Origin: Escherichia coli O157:H7
GTDB lineage: Bacteria; Pseudomonadota; Gammaproteobacteria; Enterobacterales; Enterobacteriaceae
Assembly: GCF_013167455.1 (NCBI RefSeq)
Contig: NZ_CP038328.1
DNA length: 64,000 bases
Strand: one strand, 5' to 3'
A program made the position numbers. Below, piece after piece: positions 32,101-35,100 of this stretch; positions within the stretch are counted from its first letter, which is position 1, and the number at the start of each line of letters is the position of its first letter.

Positions 32101-35100
32101 ATGACGGTCTCCCTCGTTGCCCGGCAACATGGTGTAGCAGCCAGCCAGTTATTTCTCTGGCGTAAGCAATACTAGGAAGGAAGTCTTACTGCTGTCGCCG
32201 CCGGAGAACAGGTTGTTCCTGCCTCTGAACTTGCTGCCGCCATGAAGCAGATTAAAGAACTCCAGCGCCTGCTCGGCAAGAAAACGATGGAAAATGAACT
32301 CCTCAAAGAAGCCGTTGAATATGGACGGGCAAAAAAGTGGATAGCGCACGCGCCCTTATTGCCCGGGGATGGGGAGTAAGCTTAGTCAGCCGTTGTCTCC
32401 GGGTGTCGCGTGCGCAGTTGTACGTCATTCTCAGACGAACCGATGACTGGATGGATGGCCGCCGCAGTCGTCACACTGATGATACGGATGTGCTTCTCCG
32501 TATACACCATGTTATCGGAGAGCTGCCCACGTATGGTTATCGTCGGGTATGGGCGCTGCTTCGCAGACAGGCAGAACTTGATGGTATGCCTGCGATCAAT
32601 GCCAAACGTGTTTACCGGATCATGCGCCAGAATGCGCTGTTGCTTGAGCGAAAACCTACTGTACCGCCATCGAAACGGGCACATACAGGCAGAGTGGCCG
32701 TGAAAGAAAGCAATCAGCGATGGTGCTCTGACGGGTTCGAGTTCTGCTGTGATAACGGAGAGAGACTGCGTGTCACGTTCGCGCTGGACTGCTGTGATCG
32801 TGAGGCACTGCACTGGGCGGTGACTACCGGCGGCTTCAACAGTGAAACAGTACAGGACGTCATGCTGGGAGCGGTGGAACGCCGCTTCGGCAACGATCTT
32901 CCGTCGTCTCCAGTGGAGTGGCTGACGGATAATGGTTCATGCTACCGGGCTAATGAAACACGCCAGTTCGCCCGGATGTTGGGACTTGAACCGAAGAACA
33001 CGGCGGTGCGGAGTCCGGAGAGTAACGGAATAGCAGAGAACTTCGTGAAAACGATAAAGCGTGACTACATCAGTATCATGCCCAAACCAGACGGGTTAAC
33101 GGCAGCAAAGAACCTTGCAGAGGCGTTCGAGCATTATAACGAATGGCATCCGCATAGTGCGCTGGGTTATCGCTCGCCACGGGAATATCTGCGGCAGCGG
33201 GCTTGTAATGGGTTAAGTGATAACAGATGTCTGGAAATATAGGGGCAAATCCAGATGGATTTATCGTAATAAAGACAACAGCCAAATAATGAAAAACATA
33301 AAATTTTATCTGCATGGCAAAGAGATACCAGCAGAAAGAATATTAGATACACCAGAGTGGAAAGACTACCGTCCAAAATACTCCGGTTCCACATATAAAT
33401 ATTCTTAATGATAGCAAAAAATATATTTTCGATATAATCAATGTTATGATTAAAGAGTATTTCATCAGGGCAGGTAAAAACAGAGTAAATCAGCAAAAGA
33501 AGCTGATCTTCAGCGATACTGACACTAACTGACGGTTTAAGCGGTCGTATGAAGCAGCAGCTTTCCGACGGACTGCCATGCGGATCGTTTACCTTTTGGG
33601 CTATTCCGCCCGTCATCAAGCGGCTCACGAGTACTGAGTTTATCAGGATGATATTGCTGACAATGGTAATTCGTTGACCGATGTGTACTTCACTACATAT
33701 CGGTCAACACCGTACTGCCGTGCAACATCTCCAAGATGTAGCATCGTTTTTACCAGAGGAGGCAGGACATAGATTGTAAAAAAACTATTTCGATGCATTT
33801 ACCATTGAGATATTTTCCTTCATACCAAAAGTTCTATCAATTATCGCAAGTGGTTCAACAGGTGCGGTCTTATCTATAACCCAACCACTCTCTGTAACAC
33901 TTCCTCGTGTGATATATTTTGCCTTTACTTTAACAACTATTAGATAATGCTCACGACTAAACCGATCAGCAACGCTAAGATCCGATGTGTATTCAGGCAA
34001 TATTCTTCCAATACGTACCTGCTGTTGTGCCATATATTCATCTGGTGCTTTTACATTTGGATTTGAATCAGGAAGCCCTCCAGCAGTTTTATATTCAACG
34101 ATATTTTCAGCTTGAATACCGGTTGTGCCGCGACACAATATGATGTCTGAATCGGACAGTTCTATGTGCCCCTCCTTAATTTTCGAATAAATTTGTTTAA
34201 TACTATGTTCTGGAGTTGGTACTATTTCAGAAGATAAAGCAGGCAACGTGTCTTCAAGCACCGGAGAATCATCGTATATATCCAACAAATCCTCATCATA
34301 CCCAATATCTCCTTCTCTTAACTGAGAATACGGTTTATCTATGTATCTAATAACTCCCCCACCATGAAGACCTTCTGATTTATAAAATGTACCATCAGCG
34401 TCACGAAAGAAATAAACATTAACCTGTTTGTTATTTATAGAATACCTACCTGAATATAATTCCGAATTTGGCTCCTTAGTTAAATCTACTGATTCCCCCT
34501 TGTAGACTATTTTATTTGGTGTCTCTGAAGATATGGGGTTAAAGGATTCTATATATCTATAAAAACCACCGCCAACTTTCTCATAATACCCATACTTAGA
34601 AGAGTTAAGATCTACTGCACTATATCTATTCCCCCCACGATCCTGTTTCATTTCTAATATTTTAGATTGTTTTTCGTTATATATAAAGTCATTACCATCA
34701 ATTGACTCAATTACAGAATAGAAATTAGCATTATTACTCGGATGATAAATAATATTATCATTAATGTTTTTTTCTATATGCTTCAAAGCCTCATATTTTA
34801 TCTGCAGCGAACGGCTATGTAAGTCAGAGCGAGTGCCTGGAACAAAGTCCATTCCAATACGTACAGCCCCCTGAATATAATCACAGATATTGCTAGATTC
34901 TTTTACTATAGCACTATGTAAAATGCTACTTACACCAGACAATGCATTATAACCAGGTACAGCTCCCATCGCCATATTCCAAATTGTACCTAAAAAATGT
35001 AACACAGCTCTCCCATCAGGAGAAAGAGAAGACTTATCACGATGATTTGTACTATCATTAATATCGATACTTAACTCAATCAATCCACTTAAGCCTTCTT

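Follow-up and report, generated by a model that had tools for sequence, protein, structure and literature searches.

Probable debris of an espN-type effector gene and an IS3-family element in the espK-espN spacer of prophage Sp6 of Escherichia coli O157:H7

Introduction

The spacer that separates the convergent espK and espN genes at the end of a prophage of E. coli O157:H7 contains a short inverted repeat of part of espN and a near-palindrome, which raises the question of what this DNA is and how it came to lie there. In the original prediction, made by inspection of the sequence, both features were taken for effector-gene debris and for traces of recombination among effector paralogs. We examined the spacer within the window, that is, the whole stretch of 64,000 nucleotides that was analyzed, as well as in other genomes carrying the same genes.

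The window encompasses the effector locus that ends prophage Sp6/CP-933N of E. coli O157:H7, with espK, espN and nleL, adjoining potB. The gene content identifies the locus as that of prophage Sp6/OI-50, with potA-potB, espK, espO1-1, IS2, espN and nleL. Lambda-like prophages are known to carry, at their ends, exchangeable effector loci, where genes are often inactivated, mostly by deletion (PMC8112680). The present locus conforms to this concept (PMC8112680) as it is seen in EHEC and differs from it in nothing of kind: it is located at the extreme end of the prophage, past the tail-fiber genes, and contains several effector genes along with truncated copies (the espK orphan and an nleB2-2 pseudogene) and IS elements.

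Results

The spacer spans positions 33409–33784 (376 nt; Sakai coordinates 1585644–1586019), and its left part has a G+C content of 25%. On one side it is bounded by an orphan 3’ end of espK (gogB-like; 33255–33408, plus strand, 154 nt), which is cut on its 5’ side, where it adjoins IS2, and is labeled in RefSeq as ‘type III secretion protein GogB, incomplete’. This orphan ends in a TAA stop codon (33406–33408), backed up in frame by TGA and TAG, and shares 95% identity with 30987–31149, the 3’ end of the intact espK. In non-O157 strains, an intact espK allele abuts the spacer, and its 3’ end is 100% identical to the orphan. On the other side lies espN (ECs_1561; 33785–37186, minus strand), a type III secretion effector gene that is intact, encodes 1133 aa and is recognized by both Pfam and RefSeq, with the Pfam domain DUF4765 spanning EspN residues 10–1132 (profile positions 1–1128, E-value 0).

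The fragment of the spacer that resembles espN starts 8 nt past the espK stop codon and occupies 33416–33481 on the plus strand, in the orientation opposite to the resident gene; by blastn and tblastn it comprises 22 in-frame codons equivalent to EspN residues 380–401. The counterpart inside espN (about 35984–36049, minus strand) was recovered by repeat search and blastn. An inverted match of this kind had been predicted between 33428–33475 and 35989–36030; it is real, and so is its opposite orientation, but its extent was understated, because the repeat search pairs 33416–33480 with 35985–36049 (65 nt, 86% identity), the longest inverted pair within 29400–40300. Against the whole window, blastn gave 86.2% identity over 65 nt (E = 2e-16). 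The top score of the spacer against its surroundings was 77.9 bits, compared to a mean of 24.3, a standard deviation of 2.0 and a maximum of 31.9 for 200 dinucleotide-preserving shuffles, so that the similarity stands clear of the background of AT-rich DNA and a dismissal on that ground fails. Translated on the plus strand, the fragment reads KKYIFDIINVMIKEYFIRAGKN, and EspN 380–401 reads KRYIFDKINVLIKEYFIRTGKN (82% identity by tblastn, E = 1.6e-5). The 10 nucleotide differences are distributed over the first, second and third codon positions as 2, 2 and 6, and the changed codons include 4 synonymous and 4 non-synonymous ones; the longest perfect run shared by the two arms is 19 nt. Similarity ends abruptly on both sides, leaving sharp edges. 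Thus, the fragment matches the espN gene in frame over codons 380–401, at 86% of nucleotides and 82% of amino acids, but retains only 22 of the 1133 codons, has no start codon, lies in reversed orientation and is flanked by non-homologous DNA; lacking the N-terminal secretion region, it is not a complete espN reading frame. The 65-nt inverted piece is a leftover of an espN-type effector gene, and its position and frame fit a past rearrangement in an effector locus.

Downstream of the fragment, a filler of 37 nt (33482–33518) shows no similarity outside the conserved block of genes described below, referred to here as the module; matches outside the module start only at 33519 (query position 39). 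The filler holds a terminator-like hairpin on the minus strand, at 33509–33487, followed by ACTCTGTTTT. This site fits the pattern of a predicted intrinsic terminator in a consensus scan only and is separate from, and weaker than, the palindrome considered below; its fold is indistinct from those of shuffled sequences (z = -1.6).

The remainder of the spacer is largely accounted for by homology to insertion sequences. The segment 33519–33762 (minus strand) aligns with the frameshift region and the OrfB N-terminus of IS3-family elements similar to IS629 and IS1203, in two blocks, 33604–33762 and 33519–33590, with approximately 150 nt deleted between them, and comes within ~22 nt of the espN stop codon. 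Nucleotide identity to IS3-family transposase genes is 72–75% (about 74%) across 3,974 E. coli records, where an annotated ‘AL1L pseudoknot’ feature underlies the match. With tblastx, the OrfB-like peptides VLPPLVKTMLHLGDVARQYGV, PICSEVHI, STNYHCQQ and IRMAVRRKAAASYDRLNRQLVS were detected in three different frames, over which they are split by 1-nt and 4-nt deletions; stop codons are present, and the slippery run GGAAAAAAT of the IS relatives reads GGTAAAAAC in the relic. ORFs crossing the spacer contain no Pfam domains. The homology stops internally on both sides: the relic has no orfA/IRL side, no DDE domain and no IRR, and nothing resembling the IS continues past OrfB residue ~128, so that intact orfA and orfB genes joined by a -1 frameshift are not found here. 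Comparison of the flanks 33482–33518 and 33763–33784 with the ends of IS629-like elements yielded no resemblance, and neither terminal inverted repeats nor a target duplication were found there. The Rfam ALIL model (RF01497) scores 121.5 bits in the reference IS and finds no match in 33560–33800 even at E<=10 (gathering score 50 bits), and a search of phage and plasmid collections for a closer parent IS returned nothing above about 75% identity. Compared with the IS629/IS1203 group, which it resembles at ~74% identity in the frameshift region and OrfB N-terminus, with recognizable OrfB peptides, the relic retains only ~245 nt of an element of ~1.3 kb and differs in its ~150-nt internal deletion and three frame changes. 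Homology thus shows 33519–33762 to be an IS3-family piece in a pseudogene state.

The near-palindrome predicted at 33674–33707 is confirmed, with 14-nt arms TTGACCGATGTGTA (33674–33687) and TACATATCGGTCAA (33694–33707), complementary at 13 of 14 positions, around the 6-nt loop CTTCAC. Palindromes of this class (14-nt arms, at most 1 mismatch, loop of 3–10 nt) number four in the 64-kb window and zero in 10 shuffles. The folding energy is -22.6 kcal/mol on the minus strand (z = -3.8) and -26.1 kcal/mol on the plus strand (z = -5.8). The assignment of the palindrome to effector debris did not survive, in contrast to that of the 65-nt piece, which is supported as an espN-type relic: the palindrome lies inside the IS3-family relic, and in a multiple alignment it matches, column for column, the 3’ hairpin of the ALIL frameshift pseudoknot. 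It differs from the ALIL hairpin of the IS relatives in that the internal loop is closed, giving a continuous 14-bp stem. The stem is followed by CACCGTAC on the plus strand and by CGAATTAC on the minus strand, a U-tract on neither; 33674–33707 thus does not have the form of an intrinsic terminator and is not reported by the terminator scan. The sole polymorphism in the palindrome, C33696T in the non-O157 copies, disrupts a G-C pair with no compensating change; on the plus strand, both imperfect positions, the C33696T variant included, are G-U wobbles.

The stability of this hairpin was compared with the outcome of neutral decay simulated from an IS629-like sequence (2,000 simulations), of which 6% on the minus strand and 1.4% on the plus strand fold as well as the palindrome. 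The excess is mild and insufficient to claim selection. The stem gained length from each of the two frame-breaking deletions, so some structural selection, or templated correction of a quasi-palindrome, may have played a part. Such ‘correction’ by intramolecular template switching is familiar from studies of E. coli mutagenesis, and the relic resembles it in that several changes relative to the IS relatives, two indels included, all raise the complementarity of the arms. It differs in that both arms depart from the reference sequence, and since both differ from the IS relatives, a single templated event is unsupported; the pattern is explained equally well by a hairpin that co-evolved in an unsampled parental IS. 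The palindrome is best read as an IS frameshift hairpin remodeled into a longer, simpler stem.

The module, which consists of the espK 3’ end, the fragment, the IS relic, espN and nleL, is conserved at 99% identity or more in 480 of 5,426 complete E. coli genomes, with a single orientation in all 480; the carriers listed include O157, O55:H7, O103, O111, O121 and O145 strains. Positions 33255–33790 are contiguous (at least 80% query coverage) in all 480 genomes that bear the fragment, so that an inverted form is absent among them. Polymorphic sites across 7 other copies of the module amount to 4 of 266 (1.5%) in the IS relic, the most polymorphic segment, 0.41% in espN and 0.26% in nleL; the fragment and filler have 0 of 110, which carries no weight either way because about one would be expected. 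The module is inherited as one nearly invariant block. Within it, the spacer displays no sign of constraint, given the polymorphism of the IS relic and the uncompensated change in the palindrome.

A donor of the fragment was sought in 5,426 complete E. coli genomes, 100,044 species-representative genomes, IMG/VR, JGI metagenomes and protein libraries. In a distant blastn search of the complete E. coli genomes, 33405–33490 was found in exactly 480, each of which matched at two or more places (median 2); a closer, third copy was not among them. Among the 100,044 species-representative genomes, the exact-core pattern of the fragment gave 0 matches and an EspN peptide pattern revealed no relatives. 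IMG/VR yielded 7 loci and JGI metagenomes 4, all of which represent the same module. Among 1.84 billion representative proteins searched exhaustively with HMMER, a single full-length relative emerged, with 41% identity, which is unlike the fragment in the respective segment; a word-index protein search with the DNA reference retrieved nothing, and with a 214-aa segment, only a partial E. coli protein that is 100% identical. Because none of the searched collections yielded a donor closer than the resident espN, a second espN-type copy is something we infer rather than see. Recombination among effector paralogs, as originally proposed, is accordingly not shown, given that a second espN-type donor gene was found in no collection searched.

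Both the espN scrap and the IS3 relic are unannotated in the RefSeq records inspected, where the entry under match is ‘none’. In the Sakai record, the spacer is covered by an ORF, ECs_1563 (‘outer membrane pore protein’). This ORF is spurious and spans the IS relic, the antisense scrap and the IS2 end.

Discussion

Taken together, these observations make it very probable that the 376-nt spacer is non-functional debris of two unrelated relics, an inverted scrap of espN type and a decayed IS3-family piece containing an old frameshift hairpin. Under this scenario, the ancestral prophage effector locus would have harbored either a diverged second sequence of espN type or a partial, inverted espN copy, and insertion of an IS, followed by deletions, would have trimmed this ancestral sequence to 66 nt along with ~245 nt of the IS. 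All these events would have been over before the module spread through the EHEC and EPEC lineages. The O157:H7 locus would later have been rearranged once more, independently, when a second espK allele, espO1-1, an nleB fragment, a transposase fragment and IS2 came to lie upstream, and the 154-nt orphan would be what is left of the original espK. An IS-associated rearrangement is suggested by the adjoining relic, but the link is conjectural: since both ends of the IS are lost, a mechanistic connection between element and fragment cannot be drawn.

The origin of the fragment could also be sought closer at hand, in a short inverted duplication of the resident espN itself, made in situ 2.5 kb away by template switching or fold-back in the course of replication or repair, and since diverged by 14%; the product would still be debris. 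The fragment and espN are strictly co-inherited in the 480 genomes, where a third, closer copy is never seen; another espN-type allele is absent from every collection searched; the sole other full-length family member, at 41% identity, is quite unlike the fragment at this segment; and the piece is short and sharp-edged, all of which speak for such a duplication. Against it, the divergence of 14% contrasts with espN polymorphism of at most 0.4% among lineages, which would require a very old event, and the differences favor third positions (6 of 10), with half of the changed codons synonymous, as would be expected had the two copies both been coding at some time, a lean that with n = 10 is weak (p about 0.1 by a binomial estimate). 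We regard an in situ duplication as somewhat unlikely. Chance similarity in AT-rich DNA, as the source of both features, is next to impossible: the left part of the spacer is indeed AT-rich, and such DNA yields many short repeats, but the match is in frame and far above the shuffle maximum, palindromes comparable to the one observed do not occur in 10 shuffled windows, and the palindrome is accounted for by its homology to the IS hairpin. The shuffle test refutes a chance match.

Two further readings would assign the spacer a role. The 65-nt arms might bound an invertible segment of 2.5 kb, the flipping of which would truncate EspN after residue 401 and thereby act as a phase-variation switch; the inverted repeats do flank espN codons 402–1133, and the inverted espN frame would enter RVNQQKKLIFSDTDTN and a stop. 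But spacing and orientation are the same in 6 viral and 2 metagenomic loci with both arms, arms of 86% identity with a perfect run of 19 nt at most are short for RecA recombination, and the RefSeq annotation of the effector locus includes no recombinase genes, with only espK, the IS2 transposase, espN and nleL around the repeats. As the assemblies present a single orientation only, we rejected the switch, which is highly improbable. Alternatively, the spacer could specify a functional RNA, with the IS-derived 14-bp stem and the terminator-like stem co-opted as a 3’-UTR element common to the convergent espN and espK transcripts. Such an element might stabilize or regulate the espN message, act as a termination barrier or give rise to a 3’UTR-derived, Hfq-binding sRNA, and on read-through the espN-like scrap, sense or antisense, might pair with codons 380–401 for cleavage. 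In favor of this reading, the hairpin folds strongly on both strands and exceeds the stability expected under neutral decay, both of its imperfect positions are G-U wobbles on the plus strand, the terminator-like site lies on the espN strand, and the supplement of PMC4104026 places the espN mRNA (ECs1561) at rank 24 among Hfq-crosslinked mRNAs. However, the spacer has no Rfam match at permissive thresholds, the Rfam scan of the whole window yielding only a sar RNA elsewhere. The published supplement of Tree et al. 2014 (PMC4104026) contains no Hfq-CRAC peak or sRNA candidate in the spacer, and the only Sp6 candidates in its Table S2, EcOnc33 (1557089) and EcOnc54 (1577126), both map elsewhere. 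In the accessible part of the RNase E CLASH supplement of Waters et al. 2016, nothing maps to the spacer and no hybrid involves it. Furthermore, the predicted terminator would stop espN transcripts just short of the antisense piece, the hairpin is not accompanied by a U-tract on either strand, and the IS relic is the segment of the module that varies most. A functional RNA, including one built from the co-opted stems, therefore seems improbable.

On balance, we consider the spacer, as debris of two relics, to have arisen through earlier rearrangements, in some of which insertion sequences took part. It is of little biological weight, and its value lies mainly in annotation and in the history of the locus. 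The remodeled hairpin provides a small case of a palindrome that gains perfection while the surrounding gene decays. The module as a whole is a single ancient block, and its junctions could mark steps when the assembly of the effector locus is reconstructed.

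Debris between espK and espN at the end of prophage Sp6

The region under study matches many E. coli O157:H7 chromosomes at 100% identity and constitutes the terminal effector locus of a lambda-like prophage, designated Sp6 in Sakai and OI-50 in EDL933. RefSeq records for strains ATCC 35150 and Sakai give the gene order potA, potB, espK (29779-31140, + strand), a 91-aa gene (espO1-1 in the Sakai annotation), an nleB fragment, a transposase fragment, IS2 (31924-33254), a 'GogB, incomplete' fragment, espN (33785-37186, - strand), nleL (37777-40125, - strand) and phage tail genes. 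The 1133-aa EspN protein has a full-length DUF4765 match in Pfam, and the 782-aa protein carries the SopA and pentapeptide domains expected for NleL. The spacer (33409-33784) between the orphan espK 3' end (33255-33408, + strand) and espN is ordinary debris of known kinds. Effector clusters ending lambda-like prophages of EHEC go by the name 'exchangeable effector loci', in which inactivated effector genes are common and deletions are the main cause (PMC8112680); the spacer, comprising an effector-gene scrap and an IS relic, is a further instance of the same kind.

Elsewhere in the window, a sar antisense RNA (RF00262; 66.7 bits, exceeding the gathering score) lies at 42100-42166 on the + strand, adjoining Arc-family and Ant antirepressor genes, that is, a P22-type immI module within a lambda-like prophage.

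An inverted, in-frame scrap of espN

The original prediction described a match of about 46 bp between the spacer and the 1133-aa gene, in opposite orientation. This match is genuine and extends further, pairing 33416-33480 with 35985-36049 (65 nt, 86% identity, blastn E 2e-16). When the surrounding 10 kb was shuffled 200 times with dinucleotide content preserved, the best scores against the spacer averaged 24.3 bits and reached a maximum of 31.9, versus 77.9 observed, so that background similarity of AT-rich DNA, the explanation that the prediction had set against itself, is ruled out. The scrap (33416-33481, 22 codons) is in frame, reading KKYIFDIINVMIKEYFIRAGKN on the + strand where EspN residues 380-401 read KRYIFDKINVLIKEYFIRTGKN; the ten differences from espN are distributed 2/2/6 over the three codon positions, and similarity stops abruptly at either edge.

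We searched for a donor, that is, any sequence nearer to the scrap than the resident espN. Fragment-bearing E. coli genomes, with at least two matching places each (median 2), contained no closer copy; species-representative genomes had neither the core sequence of the scrap nor any EspN relative; and all viral and metagenomic matches belonged to the same module, with no separate donor. An exhaustive protein search returned a single full-length EspN relative (41% identity), quite different at the scrap segment, and a word-index protein search added only one partial protein, 100% identical. It follows that espN proper is the source of the scrap, through either a lost, diverged second copy or an old inverted duplication in situ; the third-codon-position lean slightly favours a formerly coding copy, although ten differences cannot decide. 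The scrap begins 8 nt past the espK stop, at 33416/33417, where the match between the two espK 3' repeats ends, and 37 nt separate it from the IS relic; it is thus flanked by two old breakpoints. The IS, whose ends are gone, may plausibly have been involved in its origin.

A set of 1.84 billion representative proteins contains, for the N-terminal ~950 residues of EspN, a single full-length relative (41% identity) and a handful of partial ones; the C-terminal ~150, from about 970 to 1132, recur in more than 100 clusters of far shorter proteins. This distribution suggests that EspN may join a toxin-like module of wide occurrence to a rare delivery or scaffold part.

A decayed IS3-family element and its frameshift hairpin

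The G+C content is 25% for 33409-33480 and 32% for espN, compared with 46% from 33481 on. A distant blastn search with 33481-33784 against complete E. coli genomes recovered the 480 locus-bearing genomes along with 3,974 records that are 60-80% identical, carry the annotation IS3-family or IS1203 transposase and have an 'AL1L pseudoknot' feature beneath the match; searches of phage and plasmid collections agreed, with no IS relative nearer than ~75%. Aligned to a reference element that is IS629-like by its ends (L003), the relic forms two minus-strand blocks, 33604-33762 and 33519-33590, between which ~150 nt of the IS are absent. Using tblastx, we recovered the beginning of OrfB as fragments (VLPPLVKTMLHLGDVARQYGV, PICSEVHI, STNYHCQQ and IRMAVRRKAAASYDRLNRQLVS) spread over three frames, so the indels postdate loss of coding. 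The relic has no orfA, no DDE domain and neither terminal repeat.

The near-palindrome within the relic, TTGACCGATGTGTA-CTTCAC-TACATATCGGTCAA (33674-33707), was borne out, with folds of -22.6 kcal/mol on the minus strand (z -3.8) and -26.1 on the plus strand (z -5.8). Palindromes of this class number four in the window and zero in ten shuffles; the other three (14-nt arms, at most one mismatch) lie at 29448-29481 (GGCATGCTTTTTAC...GTAAACAGCATGCC, just inside the prophage end, after potB), 17584-17620 and 57219-57255. The Rfam ALIL model (RF01497) scores 121.5 bits against the reference IS, where its 3' element is the hairpin CGGGG-UCGGAC-CG-G-UAUGCAG-CGAA-CUGCAUA-U-UG-CCCCG, and in a six-sequence alignment the palindrome superposes on this hairpin column for column. 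Compared with five related IS elements, the relic lacks the outer CGGGG/CCCCG stem, lost via 1-nt and 4-nt deletions, each frame-breaking, and shows one C:G to U:A double change, a closed internal loop and new pairing of flanking UUGAC with GUCAA; the ALIL model itself finds no match in the relic, even at E<=10. The column-for-column overlay identifies the palindrome, on comparative sequence grounds, as an inherited, remodelled IS frameshift hairpin. The reading of the whole stretch as effector-gene debris thus stands for the 65-nt piece, an in-frame espN-type scrap, but not for the palindrome, which derives from the IS.

In simulations of neutral decay from an IS629-like sequence at the observed substitution level (25%), 6% of minus-strand and 1.4% of plus-strand folds matched the observed stability, a mild excess over the neutral expectation. 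Co-evolution of the hairpin in a parent IS outside the sample, templated correction of the quasi-palindrome or weak selection could each account for this excess.

Assembly of the O157 locus

Comparison of espK alleles (loci L006-L008 and L015) showed that the intact O157 espK is ~92% identical to the allele abutting the espN module in non-O157 strains, whereas the 154-nt orphan is 100% identical to it. By this comparison, the O157 locus looks like two joined espK-bearing modules in which the original espK was cut short. In O103:H2, an intact espK leads straight into the spacer, a simpler and probably older arrangement. The espK copy abutting the spacer ends in consecutive in-frame stops, TAA TGA TAG (33406-33414), and the other copy in TAA TGA TAC; in AT-rich DNA such a triple stop probably means little.

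IS2 is not flanked by a clean 5-bp target duplication (ATGAC left, GATGG right). The metagenome contig QZLW01001238.1 (2913-2960 of the retrieved locus L013) shows the O157-type layout but lacks IS2, the junction reading GTGTAGAT/GATGGATTT; it could represent a genuine ancestor free of IS2 or a collapsed assembly. Left of IS2, a transposase fragment (31704-31922, - strand) resembles by eye the C-terminus of an IS256-family (mutator-type) transposase, a type unrelated to the IS3-type relic; if it is IS256-family, remnants of three IS lineages lie inside 2 kb.

Distribution, constraint and possible function

Of 5,426 complete E. coli genomes, 480 carry positions 33255-33790 (536 nt) without interruption at 99% identity or more, listed examples including O157:H7, O55:H7, O103:H2, O111, O121:H19 and O145 strains; the same module with both arms of the inverted pair occurs in six IMG/VR loci and two metagenome contigs. 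Across seven other module copies, polymorphic sites numbered 4/266 (1.5%) in the IS relic, 14/3402 (0.41%) in espN and 6/2349 (0.26%) in nleL; the 0/110 in the scrap and adjacent filler is uninformative, as about one change is expected. Within the palindrome, the sole change is C33696T, seen in non-O157 copies; it disrupts a G-C pair and is uncompensated. Nothing in these data suggests that the spacer is under purifying selection.

At the level of assemblies, the data exclude an invertible switch bounded by the 65-nt arms: 480/480 genomes and every environmental locus with both arms show a single orientation. With respect to an RNA role, the evidence is negative: Rfam places no family in the spacer, and promoter and terminator predictions show no excess except one weak minus-strand terminator-like site (33509-33487). 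The Hfq crosslinking study of Sakai lists no sRNA candidates at the spacer (1,585,644-1,586,019 in that genome), the two in Sp6 lying at 1,557,089 and 1,577,126 (PMC4104026 supplement), and no RNase E hybrids with the spacer occur among the entries listed in the PMC5286369 supplement. Since espN mRNA ranks 24th among Hfq-bound (crosslinked) mRNAs in Sakai (PMC4104026 supplement), we keep a functional reading open, as a very improbable one.

Consequences for annotation

Neither the espN scrap nor the IS relic is annotated in the RefSeq records inspected. In Sakai, ECs_1563, an 'outer membrane pore protein' mapping to 33167-33616 (- strand), overlies both, crossing the IS relic and then, in antisense, the espN scrap and the espK orphan before it enters the IS2 inverted repeat; as it has no Pfam match and is not called by PGAP in other strains, it is probably a spurious gene call. 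Overall, the original observation was confirmed and its interpretation supported in part, and the value of the spacer debris lies chiefly in annotation and in reconstructing the history of the effector locus.
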